Source: Nitrosopumilales archaeon
GTDB lineage: Archaea; Thermoproteota; Nitrososphaeria; Nitrososphaerales; Nitrososphaeraceae
Reading direction: 5' to 3'
DNA length: 16,986 nucleotides
NCBI GenBank assembly: GCA_044507735.1
Contig: JBIQJB010000037.1
Location: forward strand, 1 to 16,986
This document shows positions 1 through 16,986 of this stretch, in pieces (the first letter of the stretch is position 1; every line of letters begins with the position of its first letter). Under the pieces are notes generated by a model. That model ran no database searches. It was given only the letters and a program-made list of their open reading frames with translations, and was not told the DNA's origin. A program made the translations under genes and the position numbers.

Positions 1-30
1 TATCTTGCAATGATAGCACTTTGTAGCCAC
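1..30 (-). CDS. possible 5' end of a divergent tnpB (runs off window)
   Basis: GTG at 30 opens MATKCYHCKI... to the window edge, divergent from tnpA as in IS605-type elements. Only 10 codons are visible. Confidence 0.3.
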   Translation of the reverse strand, partial: MATKCYHCKI

Positions 31-54
31 GTTACTCTTATCTATATTCTATAG

Positions 55-483
55 GTTAAAAAAAACATTATAGGTAGAGCAAGTTCTGCAGTCTATAGCA
101 TCAACTATCATATCGTATGGTGTTCCAAGTATAGAAAGGCAATCCTCACGGAGAAGGTCAAAGAGTTTCTAGAAGACCAGCTCCGCACGATAGCAGAGAC
201 AAAGGGTTACAAGATTCTCGAACTGAGAGTAATGCCAGACCACATACACCTGTTCATCGAGGCAAATCCTTTCGATTCGCCTATGAATATTGTCAAGATA
301 TTCAAGGGCATTACTGGCTTGCGTATGTTCAAAAGGTTTCCTGAGCTTGAAAAGCAGTTGTGGAGGGGTGTTCTCGGGTCGCCATCATACTACATTGGTA
401 CAGCAGGTCATGTCTCTGCTGAAACTATCGAGCGATATATTCGTGAACAAGAACGGCATTCATCTACTGGACAAGTCCAGTAG
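55..483 (+). pseudogene. tnpA: IS200/IS605 transposase TnpA (Y1 HUH), probably degenerate
   Basis: Frame 1 is open from 55 (VKKNIIGRASSAVYSINYHIVWCSKYRK...MPDHIHLFI...KG...SPSYY...TIERYIREQE) with the HUH motif DHIH and catalytic YxxxQ. There is no ATG before 232 and an in-frame TAG at 52-54. Consensus WCPKYR reads WCSKYR and LWSPSY reads LGSPSY. Confidence 0.8.
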
Positions 484-495
484 TCTTCTGCCGTT
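452..495. repeat. IS end hairpin (TnpA-binding subterminal palindrome)
   Basis: Perfect 8-bp stem with a 4-nt loop at 464-483, plus a 7-bp outer stem at 452-458/489-495. Confidence 0.8.
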
Positions 496-787
496 AATCT
501 CTATAAAATCCATCGCGTGTCACGTGGATCAACTCTGCTTTTGCTTCTCTAGTGGCATTATCATTAGGAAGGTAGTAGCCCGGATGCCGTATGGGTTCCT
601 TGTCGACCTCTGTCAATGCCAACCTTATTGCATCGTCTTTCAATACTGCAAATGGTTCTGCATCAATGGCGGTCTGCGGATAAACAAATATCGCTACTGC
701 AGTTACACCTGTCCCGAACAGAGTGACTGTCAGCAATTTCACTACTTTACTATCGTTCAGACATTGTGCGCCATTCGGAGACGACAA
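494..787 (-). pseudogene. membrane-anchored hypothetical protein, probably 3'-truncated by the IS insertion
   Basis: TTG start, N-terminal hydrophobic segment (LLTVTLFGTGVTAVAIFVY) and ATATAT about 26-32 nt upstream. The frame reads ...DGFY across the TTAT target site and stops 2 codons later inside the IS end. Confidence 0.55.
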
Positions 788-947
788 GGGCTTGAATCAA
801 TGGCATTTGAAGCATATATCATTAGTTTAGTTTGAGGAAGCCATTCGTATCAGCGATTCATTTCTGGCATCTACAAGATTCAGGCTGATGCCAGCAGTCG
901 CTTGAGATGGAGTGCTGCCTTTTGCTCCCTCACAGGATTTTGAGTCT

Positions 948-1598
948 TTACCTGCTAGTATATTCCTTCAAAGATTCTGCAATAGCCGCTAGCTGTTCCA
1001 ATGGAATCTCAGTTGACCGGGCCTGTATCTTTACAATGGTTCCCGTCTTGTCGTCAACTACCCAAATCGTGGCAGGATGTTCGATTATAGACCGGTGCAC
1101 TATTTCGCCATTTTCATCTATAGCTATCGATTCAGAAAGACCCCTGTCGTATCCGGCGGCAATCATCCTGCCATTCTGGAATACATAGCTCTTTGCTTCA
1201 AGACCGTTTTCTGCAAAGCTTGCCATGGCTCTCTGAACATACTCTTCACCAGTTCTTGCGCTGCCTACTCTGCTCAGAGGAGATTCGACAATCTCGATAT
1301 ACCCTTCCTCGTGCGATGCAGGGTTGTCAGGGTCGCACACTGGACGGGTGAAATACTGCATATAGACTGTATCTGGTGGAACAAAGTCGACTGACTGCAG
1401 TGAATAGCCATCGGGCAGCGTCTCTGGCAGCAGTATTTCAAATGAAGCATTTTCCTTTACTTCTTCAATGCTATACCAACAGAGAACCTCTTCACTGCTA
1501 TTCAGCGGGCCACTGACAAATATTGAGGAGAACACAAATACCAGCATTATTCCAACGGCCAAGCCTGCGAGTGCAGAGATTGTTACGCTGCCTGCCAA
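948..1598 (-). CDS. N-terminally membrane-anchored hypothetical protein (DUF4367-like)
   Basis: 216 aa with an N-terminal TM helix. Motifs SIEEVKENASFEILLPETLPDGYSL and C-terminal IPLEQLAAIAESL resemble DUF4367-type extracytoplasmic domains. Confidence 0.7.
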   Translation of the reverse strand: MAGSVTISALAGLAVGIMLVFVFSSIFVSGPLNSSEEVLCWYSIEEVKENASFEILLPETLPDGYSLQSVDFVPPDTVYMQYFTRPVCDPDNPASHEEGYIEIVESPLSRVGSARTGEEYVQRAMASFAENGLEAKSYVFQNGRMIAAGYDRGLSESIAIDENGEIVHRSIIEHPATIWVVDDKTGTIVKIQARSTEIPLEQLAAIAESLKEYTSR

Positions 1599-1722
1599 CT
1601 GGTGCTATTTGTACGTAGAGCTTCTTTTGAGGGTTTATCTAAACAATCTCGTGATTTGTTTTTGAACCCCAGGCTAGATTCCATTCCACGAATCTCAAGA
1701 AGAGCTTGTGTGGCTACCTCCC

Positions 1723-1878
1723 TCATTCAAAGACATTCTTGTGGCCATTGCCGCACACCCATTCGCCCTTTTTGCCATTCGACCAAAAGTCAAACTTTAC
1801 CGTATCTGACTGCACTTCATGGCTGCCGCAAATCTTGCACGGCGGCAAAGGCCGCGAATGGTTGAGAAAGGACACCAT
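1723..1878 (-). CDS. 51-aa zinc-finger microprotein (not in ORF track)
   Basis: Manual translation: MVSFLNHSRPLPPCKICGSHEVQSDTVKFDFWSNGKKGEWVCGNGHKNVFE*. It has CxxCG and CxNGH knuckles, with minus-strand TTAAAAT at 1902-1908, 24-30 nt upstream of the ATG. Confidence 0.7.
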   Translation of the reverse strand: MVSFLNHSRPLPPCKICGSHEVQSDTVKFDFWSNGKKGEWVCGNGHKNVFE

Positions 1879-2039
1879 GAACCTCTGTTACACAAAGTGC
1901 GATTTTAAGTAATTGGCAAGTCGCTCTCCAGATATTGACTCAATTACACAAGATGAAAGAATGAACTATTCAAGATCTTTTTGTCAACAAACAACAAATT
2001 CAAAAAGGAGAGAGTGTGGCGGCGGAAGATGCTGTCCCT

Positions 2040-4169
2040 CTAGGCCGTGGCAGTCTTCTTCTTCTTGCCATCGTCGTAGTTCCACACCAGGTTCGTGTAG
2101 AGCATCTGCGGCACCAGCTTCTTGAACTGGACACCGTCAGACCTGTACCACTTCGGGAACCACTCGTACAGGTGCAACCTGATGGTCTGGATGTAGACGA
2201 TCAGGCCCTCTATCATCATGATGCCGATGTTGCCGCCAATCAGTATGGCCAGACCTCCGCCGTGCTCGAACGAGTTGTTGACCGTCACTAGAAGCGCAGT
2301 GTGGACAAGGAGCATGATACCAAGTCGAGAGTAGCTGATGGTGTTGGCGAGCATCTCGATGGTCCTGACCATGACTGTTTCTACCACAATGCCGACGATC
2401 CCGCCTCCCTCTGGCTCCTTGCCGTGAGCGAGGGCATGCTTTTGTTCCTTCAGGCCGCCAATGATTGTAATGGCAATGCATGCAATGATTACAGGAGGCA
2501 TGGCCTTTGCCACAAAGCCCACCGAAACCCAGCTTCCAAACGCAAATGTCAGCCATGGCACCGGTGTATCATAGTAGTTGTCACTCAGGAACATTCCGAT
2601 GATATCGTACTGGGAACCGATGGCAGCGAGTATCAGTGAGACAACTGCGAGGTACTGTATGATGGCAGGTATATCGTGGGTGTAAACCATCAGCTTGTTG
2701 CCCTGCTTCAGGTTCGTCCTCAGCCTGAGGAAGAACGCAAGCAGCAGGTGAACGATACCTATCGCAACAGATACCTCCAGTATCTTGACTACCTGGTCAA
2801 ATGTCAGCTCTGATACGCTCAGCAGGCCAATGAACGGCAAAGAGTGGGCGATCGGCTCAAGGAACGCAATGTGATCAAGGTGGAACCCAAACATCTCGCC
2901 AGTTCCAAGGCCTCCTACGGCTGCGCCAAGGCCGCTGGCTGCAATGAGCGTTCCCCAAACTTTCAGCCTGCCGTTGCCCCTGAACCTAAAGAGCATGCCA
3001 AGACCGAAGAGCAAAATACCGTGGCCGAGGTCTGCAAACATCAGCCCGTAGAATATCGGCCAGACAAACGCGATCATTGGCGTCGGGTCGATTTCGCCGT
3101 ACCTTGGCAGCCCCTGGGTCTCGGTAATGACCTGGAAGTTGTGCACGTACTTTTTGTTGGTGAGGAGCGACGGAAGTGGCTCAGAGCCCCTTTCGCCCTC
3201 GTGGCTGTTTACCGTAATGTTGGCGTCTTCAACTATGGAAACATAATCAGAGGTGAGCTTTTTGAACTTGCCCTCCATCTCTTGCGGGATATAGCCCTCA
3301 ATTACTGCAAAGTTCTTGGTTCCGCCGGGTTTCCTTGTGATTTCAAGGACGTCCTTGGCAACCCTCGCGGCCTCCTGCAGTGACAGAAGCTGTGTGAGGA
3401 TGGACTGCTTGACCTTTTCGACCTCCTTGTCCACCTGCTGTTCCCGGGCTTCAAGTTCTTTGACCTTGGCCTTTGCAAGTGCATAAGCCTCGCTTGGGTT
3501 CTGTGGCATGTTTGGAGGGAGCTGCAGCGGGTTGACGCCAAAGCTCCTGAGCACCTTGAGCACGCGCTCCGAGTCGTCTGCAGAGCCAATGATCACAAGA
3601 GATGTCTTGTTCTCGCTGAGCTTCATGGAATAGATGGCAAGGTCGTCAAGGCTCTTTCTGATCTCGGCCTCGTCGTGGGCATCGATAACGAAAAGGTTGG
3701 CCGAAAAGTTGTTCAGCTTGGACAGAACGCTCAGGTTAAAGCTCAGATTTGCGGCGTTTGAGACAAGCGCCTCAAGAGTTGAGTACTCTTCAAGCTCTTT
3801 CTTGACCCTGTTGCGCTCTTCAAGCACCTTCCTTGGGCCTTCAAGCAGCTTGGCGCTCTTGTCCTCAAGGTCGGCGATAAAGCCCTGAATGTCTTCAGCA
3901 GCGTAATCGTGCTTGCCCTTTGGGGCGCCCTTGAACATGGTCGCAAGGACTCCCGTCTCTGGAGGTATGCCCAGGGCCTTGACCACTTCGTCAATGTCCT
4001 GGTACAGCCTTTGGGCCTTTGTCAAAAGATCGTCGTAATACGGGTTAATGTGTTCAGAAGCATTCTGGATCGGATGGAACCACTCCAGCTCAGCCAGCCT
4101 GCTCACGGCCTCTTGTGTCTCCAGCCTCGGCAAGACGATCGTGGCCTTCATTAATTTGGCTAGCCCCAT
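2040..4169 (-). CDS. atpI: A/V-type ATP synthase subunit I (a)
   Basis: 709 aa with a soluble coiled-coil N-half and hydrophobic C-half. Motifs: LPRYGEIDPTP, FYGLMFADLGHG, SYSRL (essential Arg), RLHLYEWF. Confidence 0.97.
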   Translation of the reverse strand: MGLAKLMKATIVLPRLETQEAVSRLAELEWFHPIQNASEHINPYYDDLLTKAQRLYQDIDEVVKALGIPPETGVLATMFKGAPKGKHDYAAEDIQGFIADLEDKSAKLLEGPRKVLEERNRVKKELEEYSTLEALVSNAANLSFNLSVLSKLNNFSANLFVIDAHDEAEIRKSLDDLAIYSMKLSENKTSLVIIGSADDSERVLKVLRSFGVNPLQLPPNMPQNPSEAYALAKAKVKELEAREQQVDKEVEKVKQSILTQLLSLQEAARVAKDVLEITRKPGGTKNFAVIEGYIPQEMEGKFKKLTSDYVSIVEDANITVNSHEGERGSEPLPSLLTNKKYVHNFQVITETQGLPRYGEIDPTPMIAFVWPIFYGLMFADLGHGILLFGLGMLFRFRGNGRLKVWGTLIAASGLGAAVGGLGTGEMFGFHLDHIAFLEPIAHSLPFIGLLSVSELTFDQVVKILEVSVAIGIVHLLLAFFLRLRTNLKQGNKLMVYTHDIPAIIQYLAVVSLILAAIGSQYDIIGMFLSDNYYDTPVPWLTFAFGSWVSVGFVAKAMPPVIIACIAITIIGGLKEQKHALAHGKEPEGGGIVGIVVETVMVRTIEMLANTISYSRLGIMLLVHTALLVTVNNSFEHGGGLAILIGGNIGIMMIEGLIVYIQTIRLHLYEWFPKWYRSDGVQFKKLVPQMLYTNLVWNYDDGKKKKTATA

Positions 4170-4196
4170 GATCAGGGGTTCTGTGAACCCTATCTC

Positions 4197-4203
4197 TTTA
4201 AAA
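4197..4203 (-). promoter_or_regulatory. putative TATA box for atpI
   Basis: Minus-strand TTTTAAA 28-34 nt upstream of ATG 4169, preceded by a purine-rich BRE-like GAAAGGA. Confidence 0.55.
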
Positions 4204-4323
4204 TCCTTTCTTCAGCAATGTGGCCGAGAACGCACACGCTGCGCGCATGAATATGCGATGTGTTGTGTGGATGAAAGTGTTGATTGGCTTTTGGTTGCGA
4301 GAGAAAATGAAAAAGTGGTTGCC

Positions 4324-4329
4324 AAAAAA
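4324..4329 (-). terminator. putative oligo(T) terminator after atpK
   Basis: T6 run on the minus strand about 25 nt past the atpK stop, followed by further T-runs. This fits archaeal U-tract termination. Confidence 0.35.
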
Positions 4330-4352
4330 GTGGCCGGGCTGGGTTTTCTTTT

Positions 4353-4673
4353 TTACTGACCCAAGATGATGAACATCATGACTATACCGTAGATAGCGAT
4401 TGACTCGACCATACCTACGATAATGAACACGCTTGACTGCATCTTGGGGTTTTCGCTGATTGCTGCAAGGCCTGCGGCACCTACGAAGCCAAGGCCAAAG
4501 CCAGCGCCAAGTGCTGCCAAGCCAAAAGCTATACCGGCTGCGATAAACTTGAATGACGTTGAATCAGTTACAGCTGCGCCTTCACTTCCCTGCGCGAACG
4601 CAGTGTTTGTCGTCATAAAGCCTGCAAATGCAATTGCCAGAACCGCCAAAAGGGCTATTGCTTTTCGTTGCAT
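4353..4673 (-). CDS. atpK: A-type ATP synthase subunit K (c, proteolipid), single hairpin with N-terminal signal-like presequence
   Basis: Gly-rich helix GLAALGAGFGLGFVGAAG, loop ISENPK, ion-binding Glu in GMVESIAIYG, and an N-terminal MQRK-hydrophobic-AFAQ leader. Confidence 0.96.
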   Translation of the reverse strand: MQRKAIALLAVLAIAFAGFMTTNTAFAQGSEGAAVTDSTSFKFIAAGIAFGLAALGAGFGLGFVGAAGLAAISENPKMQSSVFIIVGMVESIAIYGIVMMFIILGQ

Positions 4674-4702
4674 ATCAATCAGAGTTCCGACTATCTAAGC
4701 CC

Positions 4703-4709
4703 TATTTAA
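4703..4709 (-). promoter_or_regulatory. putative TATA box for atpK
   Basis: Minus-strand TTAAATA 30-36 nt upstream of ATG 4673. Confidence 0.55.
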
Positions 4710-4866
4710 TAGTAACTACACAGGAAAATGATAATAACATCATGCAAAAAAGTGAGAGAGATGCATCAGTATAGATAGCAACAAAAAGAGATCGCAGCAG
4801 CCCCGGCAAGAAAAAACAATGATGCCGCAGACCGGCCTGCTGCCGCCGCCACTACGCACTCTGCTG

Positions 4867-6444
4867 CTATTCTGTGGCCATCTGCACCAGTTCAGAAATG
4901 CTCTTGCCCTTTCCTTCAGAGAGCGTGTTAATTCCTCCAGTCAGGCTCTCGGCGGTGATCCCCTTCTGGCCAAGCACCTGGGCGACCCGGAGCGAAGTGT
5001 TGCCCATCATGCAGACTAGCAGCGGCTTTGAGTTGGGCCCTCCAAGCGATTTTTCCATCTCCTTTGGAATCTGCTGAGTCATCAGCAGCTGCTCCACCTC
5101 GCTTGCCTTTGGCACATAGATCTTGCTTTCGTCCACCCCCAGTGTCTTGGCTATCATTTCAATCCCCTCTTTGCGCGGGGTGTACATCGTGTGTATCCAG
5201 ACGACCCTGTCATAACTTCCGATGTTGGAGACTGCTTCCTGCAGAGGCACCTCGAGGCGCTTTTGCTTTTGCTGGCTCATTGCTTCCAGGTTCTTTCTGT
5301 ACTTTTGTACCCCGTCTGCCACTATTACGACAAACCTTCCTCCGCCGCCAAAGTTGGCCATCTGCATTGCTGCATAGAGCGCAAGAGCGCTGCTCTCTCC
5401 CATGTCGTATCCCTTGTCCACAAAGAATTTCATCAGGCGCCTTGCCTGGCCAAAGTCCACTTCGTGCTGGCCTGCATACCTGTCAGGCTCGTAGAACTTT
5501 AGCCCGCTTGCCTTGCCCTTTGTCCTGATTCCTGCGACATCCTGGTCGCCGGGCGGGAAGACCACGTGCACGGCTTTCTTGCCATACTTTTCTGCCATGT
5601 ACCTGCTCAGGCCGCCGGAGGTGCCGCCGGTTCCAAAGGTGCAGACGATCCTATAGTCAGAAAGCGACTCTCCCTGCTCGCGCAGCTGTTGCTCGATCTC
5701 CGGGGCAGTCACGGTCCTGTGCACTTCTACATTCAGGTCGTTGTCGTACTGCTCAGGGCAGAAGCAGCCGTCATAGACCTTGGCCAAGAGTTTTGCCAGA
5801 TTTATGATGTCCTGCTTTGCAAGAACTGCCTCTATTTCTGCCCGCGAATTGTCAAAAGGTGAAACATCAAAGCCCAGCTCGGCGAGCTGCGAGCGGACGT
5901 TCCAGGCCGTCGCCTTGGCCGCCATGAGGTTGGCATCCCCCTTCATCCCAGGGGCGGGGCAGATGTCCATGTCGAGGTTGAGGATGCGGATGTCCTCGCT
6001 TCTCAGCTCTTCAAACACCCCTTCCTGGAGCTTCCTGGACACGAGGGTGACCACGTTTATCCCGAGTTTCTTGCCCACCAGGCCAAGCGCGATCCCAAAG
6101 TTGCCCGACGTCGCTTCAAACACTGTCTGACCTCTCTTCAGCTTGCCGGTTGCAATTGCGTCGCGAATGATGTTTATCGCGGGCCTTGCCTTTATCGAGC
6201 CTGCAAGCAGCTTTGAATCAAACTTGCCAAAAACACGCAGATCCCTGTCGGCCAGGTCCATGCCAAAGACGCTCTTTGCGCATGCCTTCAGATCTTCAGT
6301 GATATCCTTCAAAGGAGTAGCATTGACAACCTGGGCCCCTTCCAGATGGGGGACGTTGCTCAATATCTCCGTCTGGAACTGCTGGAGTAGCACGGTGTCA
6401 ACACCGTTGTTGTTGCTGCTGTTGCTGTTCAATTCCTGCCTCAC
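4867..6444 (-). CDS. PLP-dependent cysteine synthase-family enzyme (fold type II) fused to a C-terminal rhodanese-like domain
   Basis: PLP lysine motif GSIKARPA, EATSGNFG, QYDN, GTGGT and GESSA. C-terminal LLVCMMGNTS...AESLTGGI resembles the rhodanese active loop (CxxGxRS...LxGG). Confidence 0.88.
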   Translation of the reverse strand: MRQELNSNSSNNNGVDTVLLQQFQTEILSNVPHLEGAQVVNATPLKDITEDLKACAKSVFGMDLADRDLRVFGKFDSKLLAGSIKARPAINIIRDAIATGKLKRGQTVFEATSGNFGIALGLVGKKLGINVVTLVSRKLQEGVFEELRSEDIRILNLDMDICPAPGMKGDANLMAAKATAWNVRSQLAELGFDVSPFDNSRAEIEAVLAKQDIINLAKLLAKVYDGCFCPEQYDNDLNVEVHRTVTAPEIEQQLREQGESLSDYRIVCTFGTGGTSGGLSRYMAEKYGKKAVHVVFPPGDQDVAGIRTKGKASGLKFYEPDRYAGQHEVDFGQARRLMKFFVDKGYDMGESSALALYAAMQMANFGGGGRFVVIVADGVQKYRKNLEAMSQQKQKRLEVPLQEAVSNIGSYDRVVWIHTMYTPRKEGIEMIAKTLGVDESKIYVPKASEVEQLLMTQQIPKEMEKSLGGPNSKPLLVCMMGNTSLRVAQVLGQKGITAESLTGGINTLSEGKGKSISELVQMATE

Positions 6445-6470
6445 TAGGCTCTATATTGCATAAAACGGTG

Positions 6471-6478
6471 TTATAAAA
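6471..6478 (-). promoter_or_regulatory. putative TATA box for the cysteine synthase-like gene
   Basis: Minus-strand TTTTATAA 27-34 nt upstream of GTG 6444. Confidence 0.6.
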
Positions 6479-6523
6479 TATATGATATGTCTTTGAGGCT
6501 TTGGGAAAAAGGTGAAAGGTTAG

Positions 6524-6658
6524 CTAGGCCCGGGAGAGCGCCTTGCGCTTGCTTGCGGCAAGCTCTTCCTTGACCTTTTGGATCATCGAGTCGCGCTCTG
6601 CCTTGAGCTCGGCCTTGGCCTTTTCGAAATAGTCCGATGTTGCTGCGTCTACTGTCAT
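6524..6658 (-). CDS. 44-aa charged helical protein, probable small A-ATPase-associated subunit (not in ORF track)
   Basis: MTVDAATSDYFEKAKAELKAERDSMIQKVKEELAASKRKALSRA*. ATGA overlap with the atpD stop, GGAGG at 6669-6673 10 nt upstream, and the same G/C-ending codon style (AAG, GAG, GCC) as the atp genes. Confidence 0.8.
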   Translation of the reverse strand: MTVDAATSDYFEKAKAELKAERDSMIQKVKEELAASKRKALSRA

Positions 6659-7317
6659 CTTGATGCTGCCTCCGCTTCCTCTAACTTCTTCTTATCAAGC
6701 ACTACTTTAACCTTCTTGAGCCTGACGAATTCTTCGCGCTCGCGCTCTTCAAGTGTCGCCTTGATAAAGTATATCGCGTCCTGGTACTGCGGAATGATAA
6801 CATATTCCAGCGCGTTGATCAGCTTTTGCGTGCGCTCCAGTTCCTTTGCAAGGCTGAATATCGCGTTTTCATATTCTGCAGCCTTGCATATGCCCGGAAG
6901 CATGTTCTTGATTAGTTTGGATGCCTTGTCGACTGACGCGTTTGTTTCAATAAAGCCATAGGAGAGCGACTGGCCGCCTTCCCTTGTCCTGACCTGGAGC
7001 GTCGGTATCTTGACGTCGACGATGCGCCTGACGTTCACGTCCACTTCCATCACGGAGGGGGTCGAGTCAGATATCGATTCAAGCGTGGCGGTGCCAAGGC
7101 TCATGTACGCCTGGTACACCGAAGAGTAAATTTCGCCAAGCGGCGTCCAGATATCTTCCCTTGCCTTGTTCGCTTCGTCGATCATTTCGTCGATCTTTTT
7201 GAGCAATACCTCGCGCTTGTCGTCCAGGATCTTGTGCACCATCTTGGCCACTTGCATCGAGCGCCTGATCTTGATCAGCTCGATTTTTGTTGCCGTGACC
7301 CTTCTTCCAAACGACAT
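6655..7317 (-). CDS. atpD: A/V-type ATP synthase subunit D
   Basis: ATKIELIKIR...ILDDKREVL, ELERTQKLINALEYVIIP and LEEREREEFVRLKKVK. Confidence 0.97.
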   Translation of the reverse strand: MSFGRRVTATKIELIKIRRSMQVAKMVHKILDDKREVLLKKIDEMIDEANKAREDIWTPLGEIYSSVYQAYMSLGTATLESISDSTPSVMEVDVNVRRIVDVKIPTLQVRTREGGQSLSYGFIETNASVDKASKLIKNMLPGICKAAEYENAIFSLAKELERTQKLINALEYVIIPQYQDAIYFIKATLEEREREEFVRLKKVKVVLDKKKLEEAEAASR

Positions 7318-7335
7318 CTCTGTTCTCTCTCTTTT

Positions 7336-8721
7336 TTACTTGGCCTTGTAGTATTGCTTCACGTGCTTTTCCTTGATCTTGGTCAGCTCGCCCTCTGGCA
7401 GGGTTGAGAGCACCTCCCACGCCCTGCTGAGGGTCTCGTCAAGCGTCCTGTTCTCGTCTGGCGCCTGCTTTAGGAAGTGCTGCTCAAACATGTCGCCTGC
7501 GTCAAGGTATTTCAGGTCGACGCCTGTCAGGCCTGCCCTGCCGACGATTTCTGCGAGGGCCCTTACTTCCTGAGCCCTTGAATAAGCGTCGTAGAGCTGG
7601 TTTCCAACCTCCATGTGGTCGGACCTTGTCTTGCCTTCGCCGACTCCGTCCTTCATCAATCTCGATAGCGACATGAGCACGTTGACCGGCGGGTAGACGC
7701 CCTTTCTGAACAGATCGCGTCCCAGCACGATCTGCCCTTCTGTGATGTATCCGGTAAGGTCAGGAATTGGATGGGTGATGTCGTCTGCCGGCATTGACAG
7801 AATTGGCACCTGAGTCACGCTGCCGTTCTTGCCCTTGATCCTGCCTGCGCGCTCGTAGTTGTTTGCAAGGTCGGTGTATAGGTAACCAGGATATCCTTTT
7901 CTTCCGGGCACCTCTTCCCTGGCCGCGCTGATTTCACGGAGCGCCTCTGCATAGTTGGTCATGTCAGTCAGTATAGCAAGCACGTGCATGCCCAGGTCAA
8001 ATGCGAGGTATTCAGCGACAGTGAGCGCCACTCTGGGCGTGATGATTCTCTCGATTGCAGGGTCGTCTGCGAGGTTGAGGAACAGCACCGAGCGCCTGAG
8101 CGCGCCAGACTCTTCAAGGCTGCGCTTGAAATACTGCGCTTCAGAGTACTGCACACCAATTGCTGCAAACACCACCGCAAAGTCTTCCTTTGTGCCGACT
8201 ACTGTCGCCTGCCTTGCGATCTGTGCTGCCAGGATGTTGTGTGGCATGCCAGAGCCGGAAAAGATCGGCAGCTTCTGTCCCCTTACAAGGGTCAGCATGC
8301 CGTCGATGACTGATACGCCTGTCTGTATGAACGATGTCGGGTACTCGCGCCTCTCAGGGTTCATGGGCTCGCCGTTGACGTCGAGGAACTTGTCTGCGAT
8401 CGGATCTGGCAGACCGTCGTTTGGCCTGCCCAGCCCGTCAAACACCCTGCCGAGCAGTTCTTGCGAAACTGGCATCTCCATCGTCTTGCCGAGGAACTTG
8501 GCCTTTGTGCCTGTGATGGTAAGGCCAGTGGTGCCTTCAAACACCTGCACGATTGCCTTGCCAAAGCCCACCTCGAGGACCTTGCCAAGCCTTCGCTCGC
8601 CCTCTGCTGTCTCGATCTCGACCAGCTCGTCAAAGGACGCCTTGGTGATGCCGTCGATTACCATCAGCGGCCCCTTGATCTCGGCTACCTTGGTGTATTC
8701 TACTCCAGCTGTCTCAGGCAA
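7336..8721 (-). CDS. atpB: A/V-type ATP synthase subunit B
   Basis: [54 protein letters not shown] and SLSRLM. TTG start overlaps atpA by 8 nt, with GGAGG at 8731-8735. Confidence 0.98.
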
Positions 8722-10519
8722 CTACCTTCGCCTCCTCTTCCTTTGCCGCGGAACCGCCTGCGGCGGCCTTGCGGAAACCATCATCTATCTGCTTGTCCAG
8801 CTCGTCCAGTTTGCTCAGCTGTTCTTCAGGAATTTCGAACTTGGCCTTCAGTAGCGCTGGGATGATTGGCATCGCCCTGATGTCTGCAAGCGAAGTGCCT
8901 GCCTTGAGCGCCTTCTGCGCCTCCTTGTAGAACTTGACCATGAGTTTTACCAGCTTGACCTGTTTCTCAGGGCTGCAGTAGGTGTCAACCTTGTCAAACG
9001 AGTTCTGCTGGAGGATGCCGATCTTGACCATACGTGCGACTTCGAGCACCAGCTTCTCCTCGTCTGGCAGCGCTTCGGGACCGAGCAACCTGACGATTTC
9101 CTTGAGGGTGTCTTCTCTCTGCAAGACGTGGTAGGATTCTGCCCTCAGGTCGTACCATTCGCCTGTGACGTTCTCCTTCCACCACTTGCTGACATCTTCA
9201 AGGTATCCAGAGTATGACTGCATCCAGTTGATCGATGGGTAGTGCCTCGAGTATGCAAGCCGGGTGTCAAGCGCCCAGAAGGTCTTGATGAACCTGATGG
9301 TGTGCGTCGTTACTGGCTCGGTAAAGTCAGCGCCTGACGGCGACACAGCGCCTACCAGAGTGACAGAGCCGGCCCTGTCCGGTGATCCGAGTGCCCTTAC
9401 CCTGCCTGCGCGCTCGTAAAATTCTGCGAGCCTTGACGCGAGGTATGACGGGTAGCCTTCCTCTGCAGGCATCTCTTCAAGACGGCCTGACATTTCGCGG
9501 AGCGCCTCTGCCCACCTGCTGGTCGAGTCTGCCACAAGCACAACGTCGTAGCCCATGTCGCGGTAGTACTCTGCCATGGTGACGCCAGTGTAGATGGACG
9601 CTTCCCTTGCAGCCACGGGCATGTTGCTCGTGTTTGCCACAAGAACGGTTCTTTCCATCAGCGGCCTGTTCGAGCGCGGGTCGATAAGGTGCGGGAACTC
9701 TACAAGCACCTCGGTCATCTCGTTGCCGCGTTCGCCGCAGCCAATGTAGACGACCACCTTGCTGTCTGCCCACTTGGCTATCTGGTGCAGCGTAACTGTC
9801 TTGCCGGTGCCAAAGCCGCCGGGGATTGCACCCGTTCCTCCCTTTGCAATCGGGAAGTAGGTGTCGATTACGCGCTGTCCAGTCACAAGCGGTACAGTCG
9901 GGTCATAGCGCTCTGCATATGGCCTTGGCTTGCGTACGGGCCACTTGTGATACATCTTGAGCGGAAACTTGTCGCCGCCCTTCTCTGTGGTTGCGATAAC
10001 GTGTTCAAGGTCGTATTCGCCCTCTCCGGCAATGTCCGTGAGCTTGCCGCCGGGGTGGTCTGGCGGAACCAGTATGCTGTGAGTCAGCAGAGGGGTCTCT
10101 TCAACCGTGCCCAGAATCGAGCCTGGACCCACCTGGTCGCCCTTTTTCGCGCTGGGCTTGAATGTGTATTTCTTTTTCATGTCGACAGGACTTGTTACGA
10201 CGCCCCTGCCGATGAAAGCGCCAGACTTGGCAGCGATTTCATCAAGTGGCCTCTGGATACCGTCATAGATCCTGCCGATAATGCCCGGACCCAGCAGCAC
10301 CGAAAGCGGCTGGCCGGTGCCCACCACGGGCTCGCCGGGCTTGAGGCCAGATGTGGACTCGTATACCTGAATGAATGCAACGTCGCCTGTCAGCCTGATG
10401 ACTTCGCCGATGAGCTTTGAATCGCCCACCTCGACTGTTTCATACATCTTTGCTGCAGACATGCCGTCTGCCTTGACTGCCGGGCCGCTAACCCAGACAA
10501 TTCTGCCTTTTGCTACCAT
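8714..10519 (-). CDS. atpA: A/V-type ATP synthase catalytic subunit A (no intein)
   Basis: Walker [57 protein letters not shown]. 601 aa. Confidence 0.98.
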
Positions 10520-10526
10520 ATCTATT

Positions 10527-11144
10527 CTACGCCTCTCCTCTCAGCATCTGGGCTATGTTTTTCCTTATTAAAGGTTTGAGTCTTTCAATGCGAGATTCAA
10601 GTGTGTTGTCAAATGTCATCGTGCCGTCTGCAGACTTGACCCTGATCCCGCCCAGCACATCAATGCTGTGGTCAGATACCTTCGCCTTTACCTTTGGGTT
10701 CCTGCTCTGCAGGTCAGCCAATATCTTTCTGACAAGCTCGGCGTCGTTCTTGTTGCATTCGATGACGACCTCGCCCGAGCCGACAGACGAAATGCTCTCC
10801 TCGATGATGTTGCTCATCAGCGCCCTGTAGCTCTCGTTGCTGCCAGAGGCCGACAGCTTTTTCCTAGCCTCTTCGAAGGCTTTGTTAACTGCGTTTTCAA
10901 TAGTCAAAAGTTCCTGGTTGCGGGCGGTAAGCCTGGCAGACCCAACTATCTGGCGCTTCAGGTTCTCGGCCTGCTTTTTTGCAGACTCGATTATCCTTGT
11001 GCGCTCTGCCTCCAGCTTGCCGCGAGAAGCTTCAAGGTTGTTCAACGATTCCTGATACGCAGAATCTATCTTTGAAACTAGTTCTGCTTCTTTTTGTGAC
11101 AAAACCTTGTTTATAGTGCGCTCCAAAGCAGAATTTGAGCTCAT
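10527..11144 (-). CDS. atpE: A/V-type ATP synthase subunit E
   Basis: Long charged N-terminal helix, C-terminal [11 protein letters not shown]...FDNTLESRI, and position directly upstream of atpA. Confidence 0.95.
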
Positions 11145-11170
11145 TTGGTGGAATTCGGCCTTCTCACCCG

Positions 11171-11183
11171 ATTTTAACCTTTT
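11171..11183 (-). promoter_or_regulatory. putative BRE/TATA for the atpE-A-B-D unit
   Basis: Minus-strand AAAAGG-TTAAAAT, with the TATA element 27-33 nt upstream of ATG 11144. Confidence 0.55.
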
Positions 11184-11204
11184 GATACAGCAGCGCGCGC
11201 AGGC

Positions 11205-11759
11205 TCATGTTGTTGCTGATGACGATGATGATCTTGTTGTTGTTGTTGCTGCCGCGCCGAGCTCTCTGTCCACTCTCTTTGCAAGCGCCCTTATGCGCCT
11301 CAGGTGGCCCCCCTCCCAGTAGACTTTGCCGCAGCTGGTGCACTGGAAAAATTTGCTCCAAAGCTCGGCGATCCTCTCGCCGGGAAGAGAGTCTCTGACC
11401 TGCTCCGGCGTCCTTGCTTCCAAGGGCCCGTTGCACACGGAGCACCGGGAGCCAATGCCGGCAGGGCCCACTGAGGTGATCCCGTTTTTTGCCAGGATGT
11501 GAACAAGGTCTTTCACGTCGTCACCTCCTGCCCCGCCGTCGACGAGCACCCCGCCGGCTCCTGCCTTGACCGCTCGCCTGAACAGGTCCCTGTCTGCAGT
11601 AAGGATAACCCTGTTCTGTTCAATTCCTATTTTCAAAATTTCGTCGTCTGATGCGTGCGCGACATACAGGGTGTCAAACCCAAAAATGCGGAGCTTGCGC
11701 GCCACGCTCCCAAGCATTGCGTCTGCGATAAATTTAGGAGCTTTCCGACCCGCCGTCAG
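11205..11759 (-). CDS. Mut7-C RNase (PIN-like, DUF82) domain protein; start uncertain (CTG 11759 or ATG 11807)
   Basis: KFIADAMLGSVARKLRIFGFDT, RVILTADRDL, SRCSVCNGPL, FQCTSCGKVYWEGGH. Confidence 0.9.
   Translation of the reverse strand: MTAGRKAPKFIADAMLGSVARKLRIFGFDTLYVAHASDDEILKIGIEQNRVILTADRDLFRRAVKAGAGGVLVDGGAGGDDVKDLVHILAKNGITSVGPAGIGSRCSVCNGPLEARTPEQVRDSLPGERIAELWSKFFQCTSCGKVYWEGGHLRRIRALAKRVDRELGAAATTTTRSSSSSATT
11208..11256. repeat. imperfect trinucleotide microsatellite (GTT/GAT/GCT)
   Basis: tgttgttgctgatgacgatgatgatcttgttgttgttgttgctgccgc; encodes the AAATTTTRSSSSSATT tail of Mut7-C. Confidence 0.6.
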
Positions 11760-12345
11760 AAGAAGACTCGCCCCTGCACACTTCGCAGATAAATGTGCCC
11801 TCGTCATGCTGCAGGAGATCGGACCACTCGCCGCACTCGTCGCAATAGCCGGAGATGTTGCCAGGAGTTCTGGTGATGCCAAGCTCGCCCCTTACAATTG
11901 CCGCCTTTTCAGACACGACGTCGACGAGGTCTGGCGTGACCGCTATGACGTCTGAAGAAGAGATGATCCCGACAAGCCTGTTCTTGTAGACTACGCCAAG
12001 GCGCTTGATGTTGTGCTTTCTCAGCTGGCGCGCGGCCTCGGTGATGCTCTCCTCGCTTTCGATCGTGTGGATCTGCTGCATCACGTCCTTTGCCTTTATT
12101 GTGCCGGGCTTGGCGTCCTTTATCACGCCGTTTGAAACAATGTCCCAGTCAGTCACGATCCCGACAGGTTTGTCCTTGTCCATCACGACAATGCTGCCTA
12201 TCTTTTCTTCCTTCATCTTTTTCGCAATGTCGAGGATGGTGTCATCGGGAGAAGCAGAGACTACGGGGCTGTTCATGATGTCCCGTACGAGCACACGTGT
12301 CGTCATGTTTGCGTCGGCGTGCTGTCTGACTGGCTTTTTTACCAC
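11734..12345 (-). CDS. CBS-domain pair protein with C-terminal zinc ribbon
   Basis: VRDIMNSPVVS, KIGSIVV..PVGIVTDWDI, IKRLGV..LVGIISSSDV, then GYCDECG...FICEVC. Start is GTG 12345 or ATG 12306. Confidence 0.92.
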   Translation of the reverse strand: MVKKPVRQHADANMTTRVLVRDIMNSPVVSASPDDTILDIAKKMKEEKIGSIVVMDKDKPVGIVTDWDIVSNGVIKDAKPGTIKAKDVMQQIHTIESEESITEAARQLRKHNIKRLGVVYKNRLVGIISSSDVIAVTPDLVDVVSEKAAIVRGELGITRTPGNISGYCDECGEWSDLLQHDEGTFICEVCRGESSSDGGSESS

Positions 12346-12371
12346 AAAGACTAGTCGTGTTCTCTCTTTAA

Positions 12372-14330
12372 TTACTTATCTGTCTGTCCCCTTGCAGAGA
12401 AAGAGATCCTTGACTGCCCTGTCGGGAGCGCCCTTACAAAGTCGTCAAGGCTGATTCGCTTGATCGTCTCTGCGATCTCGCTCTCCCCGCCGGCCAGCTT
12501 TACAAATTCAGATTTTACTTTCTTTGCCGCATCCATGGGGTCCATGCCTCCTTGCTGGAGCACGGCGTAGTAAAGCGCCCTCTTTTTTATCGACTCTTCT
12601 GGCCCGCACACAAGGGTCTCCCTTCCGTCCAGTCGAACGACCCCTATCGCAAGCCTGATCTCTACTCCCTTTAGGTAGCTGCGCTTGCCTTCTATTACAA
12701 ACGAGCCCTTTGGCAGGAACTGGCCGGTCGGCGCGCCCTTTTTCACCTGCTCGGGCATGACCCAGTAGGCGTCGGCGCTGGATAGCCCATCCTTCCACGC
12801 CCGGCTGAATGCAACGGTGGCCTTTGCCACCTCGAGAAGCGACTGGTCGATCTTACCCTCCTGTGCGGGGGCCGCTGCATTCTTGACAATAAAGAACGGA
12901 GAGCCGTGCACTTCGGCATGGAACACAATGTCGTGCTCTGTAAGGTGCTTGCGTATCAGGGCCGAGTTTGAGGAGGCATCGCGGCCGCCTATGGCCAGAA
13001 GACCCTCGGTGGTGATGAACCACCTGTAGCGCTCGTACCACTCTTTTGGGGCCTGCTCCTTTACCACCACCTTCTTGTGGATTGCGGCAGTCTGGCTGCG
13101 CAATTTTTCGATCTGCGCCAGCAACTTGCTGCGCGCCTCCTCTATCGACGCGTTTCCACGCTCCATCTCCTTTGCCCTTCCATACAGCATCGAGCTTACC
13201 TTCGCAAGGCTCGGGTGCATCTCCACCCGCTCGCCGGCCACCTCGATGTATTTCACGCCCTTATCCTTCACCATCGATGCCGAGTTGGCCGCGAGGACGT
13301 CGTGGATCTTGGCGTCGTCCGGGTTCTGGTACGACAGGGCCATCAGCTGGTCTGCAAGCCTTCGGATAGAAGCCGATTTTTGCATCACCGCCTCCTTTGC
13401 CTTGTTCTGCTCTTCAAGATCGTGCTCGAGCACCGCGATCTGCCTGTCCAGTTCGACGGTCTTGCTGCTGCGGCCGATGTCGAGGATCTCTGTGCTGAGC
13501 ACTTCGTCGACTGCGTCCATATATGATGGCACTTTCTTGATGTTCATTTTCGCAGCCTCGTCTGTGACTATCGGGAGCGCCTCGATGGGCTTTTCCCCGG
13601 ACATGATTACCACCGGTTCGTGGTTCCTGCCAGTGCTGACATCTTCGACGAGGCTCTTGACGGTGGAATAGATCTTTTCAACCTCCTCGTCGGACAGATG
13701 CCCTGCAAGCTTATCCCTGACGCCTGCGCGCTTGGCCACCTCCTCCACAAACTTTTTGGGCATCGAGATGCTGCGGCCGATCCACCGAAGGACATCGAGG
13801 TTCTTTGACTCGCTTCGCAGCGACAGCATCTGATCAAGCGTCACTTCGAAAACGTCGACCCCCCTTGCCGGCGGGTATGCATAGCGCAGGCCGACGTTGA
13901 GAGTCCTGTGCCGGACTTCGATCGGGTTGAGGATGGCAATTATCTGCATGTTCTCGTCGCATATCGCGATGTTGCCGTCGCCAAAGAACTCGCAGACGGC
14001 GACCCTCACTTTTCCGTCAGGGTGCCTGAATTTTATCGAGACAATGCGCTCGCTCCCGGCCTGCTCCATCGACTCTATCTTGGCGCGCTCGATCTCTTTC
14101 TGGGCAATGCCCTCAATCTTGTTCTCCTCGACTGGCTTGAACTTGAGCCTTGTTATCCAGATTCCCCTCACAGATACCACAAGCATGATGTCTTCCTGTG
14201 TGGGGTGGTGTAGCCTGAGGAGAAGCGAGCTCTTTGTGATGGCGTTGACTCCGCTCACGTAATACCCGGAGGTGACCCTGCTCCTGATCTCATTGACAAG
14301 GTATCTCAACTCGATGCCGGAGAGCTCCAT
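12372..14330 (-). CDS. rqcH: Rqc2/RqcH/NEMF homologue (NFACT family, ribosome quality control)
   Basis: NFACT-N (ERIV...CEFFGDGNI), coiled coil, and NFACT-R/C motifs WYERYRWF, IGGRDASSN, FHAEVHGSP, FSRAW, QVKKGAPTGQFLPKGSFVIEGKRSY. Confidence 0.93.
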   Translation of the reverse strand: MELSGIELRYLVNEIRSRVTSGYYVSGVNAITKSSLLLRLHHPTQEDIMLVVSVRGIWITRLKFKPVEENKIEGIAQKEIERAKIESMEQAGSERIVSIKFRHPDGKVRVAVCEFFGDGNIAICDENMQIIAILNPIEVRHRTLNVGLRYAYPPARGVDVFEVTLDQMLSLRSESKNLDVLRWIGRSISMPKKFVEEVAKRAGVRDKLAGHLSDEEVEKIYSTVKSLVEDVSTGRNHEPVVIMSGEKPIEALPIVTDEAAKMNIKKVPSYMDAVDEVLSTEILDIGRSSKTVELDRQIAVLEHDLEEQNKAKEAVMQKSASIRRLADQLMALSYQNPDDAKIHDVLAANSASMVKDKGVKYIEVAGERVEMHPSLAKVSSMLYGRAKEMERGNASIEEARSKLLAQIEKLRSQTAAIHKKVVVKEQAPKEWYERYRWFITTEGLLAIGGRDASSNSALIRKHLTEHDIVFHAEVHGSPFFIVKNAAAPAQEGKIDQSLLEVAKATVAFSRAWKDGLSSADAYWVMPEQVKKGAPTGQFLPKGSFVIEGKRSYLKGVEIRLAIGVVRLDGRETLVCGPEESIKKRALYYAVLQQGGMDPMDAAKKVKSEFVKLAGGESEIAETIKRISLDDFVRALPTGQSRISFSARGQTDK

Positions 14331-14356
14331 GCTTTACGAGTGTGATTCTTCGCAAA

Positions 14357-14363
14357 TATTAAA
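14357..14363 (-). promoter_or_regulatory. putative TATA box for the Rqc2 homologue
   Basis: Minus-strand TTTAATA 27-33 nt upstream of ATG 14330. Confidence 0.5.
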
Positions 14364-14577
14364 CAATGGGGCTCTGCGATATCGCCGGCGCTGCCGCACC
14401 TGATCGAACAACTATTAGCGTCAGCTGAAATTAACCGTGCGTTGTCGCAATGACGCGAATCCACACACGTATTGCAAACTCGTCGCCGCTAAGCATTGAG
14501 CCCAAAATAGCTGATCTGACTCGACATCCGATCCATGAGCATGCTTCTATCGCCTTGCCTAACACACGGTGAAATTT

Positions 14578-14991
14578 TCATCTAGACCAGTTAAATTCGT
14601 CAGAAAAGATATTCACAAACTGAGAGCTGTACTTAAAGCCCCCGCTGCCATTTTTCATATCCTCTGCATACTTTAGCTGCGCCTTGCAGCCTTTTTGAGT
14701 AAATTGCATGTTGATCCAAGACAGAAACTTTTCGCTTCTTGATCGGGCCTTGGTGTTCTCTATCTGGTAGGAATTATTATCATACAGTTCTTGCGCCATT
14801 TCCAACGATAAGAACAACTTTGCCATTGACCACCCCATCGACAACGGCTTGGCGTTGCCCAGTTCGAATGATCCCAGTGGAAGATTGAATGCTTTTTCAG
14901 CTTCGGCCAAAACATCATGTGTGATCTTGACGTCGTTGTCAGGGTCCGTAGTTTGAAAGTCGAGTATTATGTCGCCTATGATATTGGCCAA
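14578..14991 (-). CDS. hypothetical soluble protein (137 aa)
   Basis: Only long ORF in the interval, TTG start, globular-protein composition. No family recognised. Confidence 0.7.
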   Translation of the reverse strand: MANIIGDIILDFQTTDPDNDVKITHDVLAEAEKAFNLPLGSFELGNAKPLSMGWSMAKLFLSLEMAQELYDNNSYQIENTKARSRSEKFLSWINMQFTQKGCKAQLKYAEDMKNGSGGFKYSSQFVNIFSDEFNWSR

Positions 14992-15142
14992 TCACACAAT
15001 GCTAATTGCCTGTCGAATATTATCCTTGTACCATTCTTACCATCACCGGGCGCTTGACAGTCGCGGCAGTGACCTGAGGATTGGACATAACACACGACCG
15101 CAAGGCATTTTACCGGCTGTAATTTAACCAAAAAAAGACAAC

Positions 15143-15454
15143 TTGGACGCATTTGAAAGGGTCTACTACATGCGTGCTCTGCTCGGAGTAATCGCTGGAA
15201 TCATTACGGCCTTTCTAGTACCGTTTGACCCATCAGGCCAGCTGGATCAGGGCACATCGGTAGGCATCGCCATCGGAATGGCAATTGTGTTCTATTTCAT
15301 CTCCCTCGGGATCGGGAAGGGAATCGCCAAGAACATTCCAAAGGACAAGCGCAGAAAGGTGGCGACAGAGGGCATCATGCCATTCATCTTCCTGCTCCTG
15401 GCATTCATGATAATAGTCTATACCGCGCTGCACCAGTCGGTAGTTCTAAGCTAA
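15143..15454 (+). CDS. 3-TM membrane protein, EMC6/Rab5ip-like
   Basis: Three hydrophobic segments. Pattern VYYMRALLGVIAGI...FYFIS...[basic loop]...GIMPFIF...IVYTALH resembles EMC6-family proteins. Confidence 0.65.
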   Translation: MDAFERVYYMRALLGVIAGIITAFLVPFDPSGQLDQGTSVGIAIGMAIVFYFISLGIGKGIAKNIPKDKRRKVATEGIMPFIFLLLAFMIIVYTALHQSVVLS

Positions 15455-15477
15455 AGAATATCGGGATCTGTTAACAT

Positions 15478-16966: not shown

Positions 16967-16986
16967 TTATCCTTTGCATTTCTCGT

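Follow-up and report, generated by a model that had tools for sequence, protein, structure and literature searches.

A putative cysteine synthase with a fused rhodanese domain, carried as a self-promoted cassette between ATP synthase genes of an ammonia-oxidising archaeon

Ammonia-oxidising archaea have a large share in the nitrogen cycle, and their route to cysteine is taken for granted. We analysed a stretch of 16,986 nucleotides from a Nitrosopumilales archaeon (assembly GCA_044507735.1, contig JBIQJB010000037.1, positions 1 to 16,986; hereafter the window), in which a gene for a 525-residue protein lies inside the cluster that encodes the A-type ATP synthase. The protein joins a pyridoxal 5′-phosphate (PLP) domain of the cysteine synthase kind to a C-terminal rhodanese-fold domain, and we call its gene the fusion gene. 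The reading that we favour, with middling confidence, is that ammonia-oxidising archaea have in the fusion protein a second, specialised cysteine synthase, built from a CysM-like PLP domain and a rhodanese that looks catalytically competent, and that the gene forms a cassette with its own promoter at a tolerated position among the atp genes. Membership of the enzyme class, that of cysteine-forming β-replacement enzymes, is in our judgement probable. Between soil and marine lineages the family is conserved to the same degree as core subunits of the ATP synthase: in comparison with the genome G008, identity is 64% for the fusion protein, 65% for AtpD, 64% for AtpK, 46% for AtpI and 40% for AtpE.

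A CysM-like PLP domain joined to a rhodanese fold

The coding sequence of the fusion gene occupies positions 4867..6444 of the minus strand, with a GTG start and the stop codon included; the end at 6478 given in the original prediction, which was made from the DNA letters, is the first base of the TTTTATAA promoter box and lies beyond the coding sequence. The 525-residue reading frame itself is present, and the motifs singled out in that prediction are all found in its translation (EATSGN, residues 110-115; MDICPAPG, 158-165; GCFCP, 226-230; CMMGNTS, 478-484). The sole Pfam domain found in the protein is PALP, at residues 69-376 (E = 2.8e-29); the N-terminal 65 residues and the insert described below, each searched alone, gave nothing useful in Pfam. 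From Pfam, structure and profile evidence we delimit a fold-type II PLP domain like that of CysM, CysK and cystathionine β-synthase (CBS) at residues ~24-395 (5260..6375, minus strand). Its predicted Schiff-base lysine, Lys85 in GSIKAR (codon 6190..6192, minus strand), aligns with the SVKDR lysine of CysK 8srt and lies in the S-x-K-x-R pattern of the CysK/CysM/CBS clade. TSGN (112-115), GTGGT (271-275), Q232 and S351 also align with their CysK counterparts; these are the asparagine loop, the phosphate-binding loop, the substrate glutamine and the serine that faces the pyridine nitrogen, whose roles are established. The domain is thus of the CysK/CysM/CBS kind, with its PLP machinery intact.

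Structural comparison gave a similar picture. The full-length AlphaFold model, made from 106 sequences, has a predicted local distance difference test score (pLDDT) of 92.7 and a predicted template modelling score (pTM) of 0.79, with low scores only at residues 1-10 and 162-165. Superposition of model residues 24..393-395 with VIA gave Z scores of 34.6 for Mycobacterium tuberculosis CysM (3dki; root-mean-square deviation (rmsd) 2.6, 298 residues aligned), 34.2 for Escherichia coli CysM and 34.1 for CBS, which are tied, and the top match of the family profile among solved sequences is CysM (E = 2e-45). CysK sequences align to the protein in two stretches, 66-134 and 214-376 (HMMER), and leave ~80 residues unmatched (135-213; 5806..6042, minus strand). 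The long insertion after EATSGN that had been proposed is therefore present, and it contains MDICPAPG. It consists of a flexible loop around C162 (ICPAPG), with pLDDT <50 at 162-165, and extra helices; in and after the unmatched stretch the AlphaFold2 (AF2) model places helices at 170-189, 195-199, 201-209 and 213-223.

The C-terminal part, residues 399-525 (4870..5250, minus strand), is assigned to the rhodanese fold by profile and predicted structure. A profile of 34 sequences of this part matched PDB sequences 6mxv (E = 3.2e-5), 3foj (2.2e-4), 8h4q, which is aspergillomarasmine A synthase (3.4e-4), and 1wv9 (3.9e-4), and the loop cysteine of the fusion family aligns with the loop cysteines of 6mxv, 3foj and 8h4q. 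Folded alone, the domain gave an AF2 model with a pLDDT of 95.5 and a pTM of 0.89. The top Foldseek matches of the domain are all rhodanese-like, with E values from 1.6e-4 (3gk5) to 1e-3, and include 3foj and the MOCS3 rhodanese-like domain. In a VIA-wide comparison the domain matched the rhodanese domain of a persulfide reductase (3nt6, Z = 10.1), 3gk5 (9.7), 3foj (9.5) and GlpE (8.5), as well as MOCS3, and nearly the whole list of entries at Z ~6 or more consists of rhodanese folds. In the ESM Atlas, residues 395-525 led to rhodanese clusters at only 0.84, which we take as a lead and no more. The rhodanese-like domain with a cysteine loop that had been read from the letters is thus borne out by profile search, AF2, Foldseek and VIA-wide comparison, and we conclude that the domain as modelled is a genuine rhodanese fold.

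Cys478 (codon 5011..5013, minus strand) is the first residue of the six-residue loop CMMGNT, which is followed by Ser484, and it aligns with the cysteine at the active-site position of rhodanese-like proteins. In the AF2 model it sits after a strand (474-477) and before a helix (482-493). The loop has the length found in sulfurtransferases and is without a basic residue; we take it to resemble the loop of GlpE. Cys478 is invariant in all 25 genome loci and in all sequences of our conservation alignment, which holds 128 homologues (121 close and 7 distant full-length). The original prediction had staked the domain on its fold and on conservation of this cysteine, and both held. The domain looks catalytically competent, with Cys478 as the candidate site of persulfide formation.

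Across the same alignment K85, S113-G114-N115, Q232, G271, T272, G274, T275, S351, C162, C229, C478 and G481 are invariant (128/128). Cys162 (codon 5959..5961, minus strand) lies in the ICPAPG loop, and Cys229 (codon 5758..5760, minus strand; FCPEQY) stands three residues before the conserved Gln232, in a segment that aligns with the QQFxNPxN segment of CysK. The GCFCP segment that had been singled out is present, but its two cysteines differ: C229 is invariant, whereas C227, the first, is unconserved (97/128).

The family is compact. Only 33 of 1.84 billion representative proteins match at E <=1e-30, mostly fragments, and its named members come from Nitrososphaera, Nitrosopumilaceae and, at 41-42% identity, metagenome-assembled genomes of Micrarchaeaceae. 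We found orthologues with 57-95% identity in 101 of 201 genomes of the class and at 80 metagenome loci. One unpublished genome (G132) adds one count to each of the 201-genome surveys (fusion gene, AtpD and ordinary CysK/M) and one inspected locus, and none of our conclusions rests on it. We conclude that the fusion protein belongs to an uncharacterised CysM-like subfamily with a fused rhodanese.

Gene presence points to cysteine synthesis

The genome of the window (G000) also carries an ordinary 333-residue CysK/M-like gene, on contig C47, which the cysKM model matches in a single stretch with 284 bits; such a gene is present in 173 of the 201 genomes of the class. In family f2 (n = 114), 79 genomes have both genes, 23 only the ordinary gene, 12 only the fusion gene and none neither. 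All 12 f2 genomes in which the ordinary gene was not found at E 1e-25 (G056, G059, G072, G086, G110, G115, G125, G131, G141, G148, G149 and G186; all >=97% complete) thus carry the fusion gene. The five closed genomes among them were examined in detail, and the seven drafts were checked with one protein query only.

In each of the five closed genomes the cysKM model matches only the fusion protein and a protein of ~400 residues. The ~400-residue proteins scanned, from G149 and G086, are threonine ammonia-lyase (IlvA), with 471-487 bits against a cut-off of 379. In these free-living relatives the fusion is therefore the only enzyme of the CysK/CysM/CBS type. We detected in these five genomes no genuine enzyme of the Cys_Met_Meta_PP family (cystathionine γ-lyase/synthase), the best match reaching 33 bits over a third of the model, and no SepCysS, the best match reaching 52 bits against a cut-off of 365. 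Cultured ammonia oxidisers make their own cysteine in mineral media. With no other cysteine-forming candidate in the five genomes, the fusion protein is the sole candidate, if these organisms make their own cysteine. This sole-candidate status is the strongest evidence for a cysteine synthase, a function that is itself predicted.

The same genomes bear on a reverse or side direction of the chemistry, in which the protein would be a cystathionine β-synthase, or a cysteine desulfhydrase that loads its own rhodanese for cofactor or tRNA thiolation. CBS catalytic cores match the PLP domain as well as CysM does (Z = 34), and many of the structural matches are rhodaneses joined to enzymes that mobilise sulfur (MOCS3, Uba4 and persulfide dioxygenase fusions). 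However, the five closed genomes have no cystathionine γ-lyase/synthase family enzyme, so cystathionine would be a dead end, and a desulfhydrase role would leave them without a cysteine synthase. We therefore regard this direction as very unlikely.

A candidate persulfide relay and its rivals

Within the cysteine-forming class, a persulfide relay is the most attractive mechanism, because the rhodanese cysteine is invariant, its loop has six residues and two more invariant cysteines stand beside active-site elements; taken overall, the relay is a tentative proposal. In such a relay the PLP domain would convert O-phosphoserine or O-acetylserine to the aminoacrylate, and a persulfide on C478 would hold sulfane sulfur from thiosulfate, sulfide-derived sulfane or another donor and pass it to the aminoacrylate. 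C162 and/or C229 might then resolve the mixed disulfide, so that cysteine or cysteine persulfide would be freed. A fuller version, which we find rather doubtful, makes the protein a self-contained persulfide-relay cysteine (or cysteine-persulfide) synthase with release via C162/C229, a carrier-free counterpart of CysO-CysM that would have taken the place of ordinary CysK in some streamlined marine ammonia oxidisers. More boldly still, the repeated occurrence of the gene in the same spacer, described below, might reflect selection for expression alongside the ATP synthase. If the fused rhodanese does deliver sulfur, this would be a new and compact way to feed a PLP enzyme with sulfane sulfur, and it would bear on the sulfur sources that marine ammonia oxidisers can use.

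The protein might instead be an ordinary O-acetylserine/O-phosphoserine sulfhydrylase that uses sulfide, with the rhodanese and the extra cysteines serving a regulatory or structural purpose (redox sensing, dimer packing or substrate gating), like the C-terminal regulatory module of CBS, and with no persulfide delivery. The evidence for a cysteine synthase serves this alternative identically. A gene of the sulfite/nitrite reductase family is present in all five closed genomes in which the fusion is the sole candidate, so free sulfide should be available, and the best structural matches to the whole chain include CBS chains that carry C-terminal domains. Moreover, the fungal enzyme with the same architecture uses its rhodanese domain for no sulfur chemistry, going by the reaction given in the accessible part of PMC12751119. 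Against this, the loop cysteine, G481 and S484 are invariant or nearly so in 128 sequences, down to ~33% identity, the CMMGNT loop has sulfurtransferase length, and C162 and C229 adjoin active-site elements. On balance we consider an ordinary sulfhydrylase unlikely.

A different chemistry is suggested by the closest architectural match. The top Foldseek matches of the whole model are 8h4h and 8h4q, aspergillomarasmine A synthase (E = 3.6e-20), the only solved chains aligned over both domains; VIA aligned 416 of their residues, spanning 21..518 of the model, at Z = 33.5, and it is the C-terminal domain of this fungal enzyme that the C-terminal profile matched at E = 3.4e-4. Aspergillomarasmine A synthase and Fda4, the latter a PLP enzyme with a rhodanese-like domain that condenses O-phosphoserine with L-alanine, form C-N bonds from O-phosphoserine and aspartate or alanine, according to the part of PMC12751119 that was accessible. 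The archaeal fusion could likewise be a C-N bond-forming O-phosphoserine enzyme of the SbnA, aspergillomarasmine A synthase or Fda4 type that makes an N-(2-amino-2-carboxyethyl) amino acid, perhaps on the way to diaminopropionate or to an aminopolycarboxylate that chelates metals, and the NCBIfam SbnA family scores 89 bits, not far under the CysK models. However, identity to the fungal enzyme is 19-21%, and the rmsd is 15 Å because the two domains are oriented differently. Among solved sequences the family profile prefers CysM, and the fungal enzyme is not in its top 60; no SbnB-like or oxidoreductase partner or biosynthetic cluster adjoins the gene in the annotated loci. C-N bond formation would also leave the five closed, autotroph-type genomes without a cysteine-forming enzyme. 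We judge it distinctly improbable.

The fusion gene as a self-promoted cassette

The original prediction had the fusion gene separating atpD and a small open reading frame (ORF) from atpK, which we confirmed on the minus strand. The flanking genes, all on the same strand as the fusion gene, are atpI (2040-4169) and atpK (4353-4673) on one side and, on the other, a 44-residue ORF (6524-6658) and atpD (6655-7317), followed upstream by atpB, atpA and atpE. The 44-residue ORF overlaps the end of atpD by 4 nt and marks the upstream boundary of the insertion site; it is not part of the enzyme. The assembly holds a single copy of the fusion gene.

A TATA box of its own, as had been proposed, precedes the fusion gene: TTTTATAA (6471..6478, minus strand, read from 6478 to 6471) ends 26 nt before the start codon. 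The CATATATTTTATAACACC motif or a near copy is found upstream of the fusion gene in seven embedded loci, that is, loci with the gene between the atp genes, and a similar TATA box also precedes it in two non-embedded loci. Past the stop codon lie T-rich tracts (4783..4816, minus strand; T6 at 4811-4816 and T5 at 4783-4787) that from their sequence could act as archaeal terminators. A direct repeat matching at 9 of 10 positions bounds a cassette of 1750 bp, with TCACCTTTTT upstream (6506..6515, minus strand) and TCACTTTTTT downstream (4746..4755, minus strand). In G184, a genome of the same genus, one T-rich copy of the repeat lies inside the 91-bp spacer; the repeat is itself T-rich and could be a chance match. 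The gene atpK has its own promoter-like site, the box TATTAAATA (4703..4711, minus strand), 29 nt before its ATG; GTAGTTACTATTAAATAGGGCTTAGA of this site is conserved in the uninterrupted spacer of G184, with a similar sequence in G200.

We inspected the locus of the fusion gene in 46 other species genomes; the genus comprises 14 genomes, this one included. The embedded arrangement was found in 1 of the 46 (G265, with 81% identity in the fusion protein and 71% in AtpI), and the other 45 have no atp genes near the fusion gene. It also occurs in 6 of the 80 metagenome loci (76-95% identity), or 5 of the 71 with adequate flanks. All embedded loci are Nitrososphaera-like, and none was seen among the inspected loci outside the genus. 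The original prediction would have given up a functional link had the location been unique to this genome; it is not unique, but it is confined to some Nitrososphaera lineages. Within the genus, 2 of the 14 genomes are embedded, 6 carry the fusion gene elsewhere and in 6 no copy was found. G184 and G200 are syntenic with the window from the NFACT gene to atpI, and their spacers between the 44-residue ORF and atpK measure only 91-125 bp. A further ten same-genus genomes have an uninterrupted atp cluster, and six of these are without any copy of the fusion gene.

The position of the gene varies within this one genus, with at least four genomic contexts (loci L033, L034 and L141-L144): the atp spacer; a site between a NIF3-like gene and a tRNA (G184, G299); a site between two zinc-ribbon genes (G200); and a site shared by G256 and G287. 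In the present genome neither the G184 nor the G200 site is occupied (contig C6, ~914-1138, and contig C23, ~16147-16182). The fusion gene keeps its own TATA box across contexts, as if a cassette of promoter plus gene relocates. Beside the G184 copy, 61 nt after the fusion gene, is a 103-nt tRNA (L033, 10846-10948) that scores 43.9 bits in Rfam and was missed by ARAGORN, and it is therefore probably intron-bearing; the same tRNA is found at the corresponding unoccupied site in the genome of the window (contig C6, ~985-1100). In two embedded metagenome loci (L066 and L067), ~400 bp (350-480), similar in both, lie between the 44-residue ORF and the fusion gene, and this long spacer may hold another small gene or a remnant.

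We compared a gene tree of 32 rows, for which 64 of the 80 metagenome loci were dropped, as were most loci from genomes, with an atp tree of 20 rows built from AtpB, AtpD, AtpK and AtpI segments. In the gene tree the embedded rows form no clade, and this genome together with L060 is sister to the non-embedded G184 group (support 100/99). In the atp tree the embedded state falls mostly on early branches, and an embedded ancestor needs fewer changes. Since the embedded rows are scattered and mostly early on the atp tree, the arrangement is probably old in the genus and was dissolved several times. Repeated insertion into the atp spacer is a possible alternative to one old insertion; the insertion junctions vary between lineages, and G184 and G299 share another site. 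For the reader of operons there is a caution here: the place of this gene within a well-known operon seemed to say something about function, and the gene turns out to be a movable, self-promoted cassette.

Presence is independent of the ATP synthase type

We searched for AtpD in the same 201 genomes as for the fusion gene. Genera with the same A-type AtpD (63-85% identity) and without the fusion gene include g7 (0 of 11 genomes), g5, g6 and g21, and genera with a divergent, V-like AtpD (28-33% identity) that have the gene include g20 (9 of 12), g14 and g3. In g2 and g4, AtpD is V-like and the fusion gene was not found. Absence of the gene thus does not follow the V-type ATPase lineages that Wang et al. 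2019 described, and its presence is independent of AtpD type. The 'sulfT' reported beside atp operons in the accessible part of Wang et al. 2019 is unlikely to be the fusion gene, which lies ~224 kb from atpD in G008 and has no atp gene within ~9 kb in 20 genomes. Elsewhere, one Nitrosopumilaceae-like group shares a conserved neighbourhood (seryl-tRNA synthetase, S3Ae, geranylgeranyl reductase, MoxR-type AAA and VWA genes upstream; ASCH and TBP genes downstream). Outside that group the neighbours are unrelated housekeeping genes with no sulfur context, and we dismissed them as a functional clue.

These results bear on the possibility of a functional tie between the fusion enzyme and the A-type ATP synthase, such as a sulfur/redox link or the modification of a subunit. 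Embedding recurs in G000, G265 and 6 of the 80 metagenome loci, which differ by up to ~24% in the fusion protein and ~33% in AtpI, and it appears on several branches of the gene and atp trees, so that it must be either old or recurrent. However, the survey found one embedded genome in 46 and ten uninterrupted clusters in the genus, six of them without the gene; A-type genera lack the gene and V-like genera have it; the fusion gene and atpK each have their own promoter; and in G008 the two loci are far apart. Neither in co-location nor in co-occurrence does the gene behave as a component of the A-type ATP synthase operon. Given the rare embedding and the independence from ATPase type, we reject a functional tie, to which we give next to no credence, and with it the suggestion in the original prediction that the location links sulfur or redox status to energy conservation. 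The likeliest explanation of the location is that the position is tolerated because the spacer separates two transcription units, one of atpD with the 44-residue ORF and one of atpK and atpI, as atpK keeps a conserved promoter-like box in all relatives; we infer a tolerated spot between these units and no functional coupling.

The AtpD search also returned two AtpD genes ~12 kb apart on contig C24 of the same-genus genome G228 (186895-187530 and 198896-199534; loci L149 and L150), one A-type (86% identity) and one V-like (31%) beside an AtpB of 58% identity, so that this genome seems to have the two ATPase types next to each other. G059, G173 and G149 likewise gave two AtpD matches.

Other features of the window

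By tblastn (53-82% identity), the 44-residue ORF is conserved after atpD and before atpK in all 13 same-genus genomes and all 6 embedded metagenome loci that we examined. It has no match in Pfam or NCBIfam, looks coiled-coil and could be a small stalk subunit of the A-type ATP synthase that has escaped annotation. Upstream of atpE are genes for a Mut7-C/PIN-like RNase (11205-11882, minus strand), directly adjacent, and for NFACT, a protein of ribosome quality control (12372-14330, minus strand); both are syntenic with atpE in G184, G200 and G265. About 1.6 kb beyond atpI, an 83-residue ORF (232-480, plus strand) matches the C-terminal part (positions 49-121 of 121) of the IS200-like Y1 transposase family (E = 3.7e-19), and it is an insertion-sequence remnant or a truncated gene.

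Weighing the reading

Several observations weigh against our reading of the fusion protein as a specialised cysteine synthase. The gene turned up in only 9 of the 121 genomes of its own family, and no copy was found in the other 112, among them 6 of the 14 of the genus; genomes that have the ordinary gene can therefore do without the fusion. The empty class of f2 genomes with neither gene is statistically weak, as chance alone would put ~2.4 genomes there and related genomes do not count as independent. The fusion protein reached no NCBIfam cut-off among the cysK, cysM, CBS, SbnA and cysteate synthase models, the best scores in bits (cut-offs in brackets) being 106.7 (387), 103.6 (344), 92.7 (394), 86 (510), 89 (350) and 56.9 (600); against the cysteine synthase models, with cut-offs of 344-413, it reaches only ~100 bits. 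With scores below every curated cut-off, it forms a separate subfamily and is no member of a curated equivalog. The C-terminal 127 residues (399-525) matched no Pfam family even at E = 10, PF00581 included. The only solved protein with the same architecture forms C-N bonds, and it keeps the rhodanese-loop cysteine, so an invariant cysteine is no proof of sulfur transfer. The sulfur donor, the use of O-phosphoserine as against O-acetylserine and the C478 persulfide are all points that we infer. Finally, the embedded state recurs on several branches of both trees, and if the embedded loci are independent insertions this would hint at selection for the site.

Relation to known systems

Our literature searches returned nothing specific on the archaeal fusion protein and nothing on the family in ammonia oxidisers. 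In one public source the family already carries the name 'cysteine synthase/rhodanese-related sulfurtransferase', and a preprint, in its accessible part, mentions two cysteine synthases in N. viennensis and names only CysM1. The proposal of an undescribed system is thus upheld in that no characterising paper was found, but the family already has a name, and a fungal enzyme of solved structure shares the architecture and catalyses another chemistry.

The best match in sequence and structure is CysM (of E. coli/Salmonella and of M. tuberculosis), with which the fusion protein shares the PLP fold and the catalytic residues. It differs in having ~24% identity, ~80 extra residues with an invariant cysteine loop, and a rhodanese in cis instead of a separate carrier. 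CysM of M. tuberculosis depends on O-phosphoserine and takes its sulfur from the thiocarboxylate of the carrier CysO, and CysM enzymes accept donors beyond free sulfide, such as thiosulfate and protein-bound thiocarboxylate. Aspergillomarasmine A synthase (PDB 8H4H/8H4Q) has the same order of PLP and C-terminal rhodanese-like domains, a similar length and a cysteine at the rhodanese loop position; however, this enzyme and Fda4 (Fusarium poae) belong to fungal secondary metabolism, form C-N bonds and are not close sequence relatives of the fusion protein. The fungal and archaeal fusions of PLP and rhodanese domains may be independent. CBS shares the PLP core (Z = 34) and, like the fusion protein, carries an extra C-terminal domain on a CysK-like core, but the fusion has a rhodanese where CBS has its CBS-domain pair, lacks a heme domain and is accompanied by no downstream transsulfuration enzyme in the genomes examined. 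GlpE, TSTD1, MOCS3/Uba4 and the persulfide reductase and dioxygenase fusions have the same rhodanese fold (Z 8-10) and a cysteine at the same loop position; compared with these known rhodaneses, the domain of the fusion protein is too divergent for PF00581, its CMMGNT loop has no basic residue and its activity is predicted.

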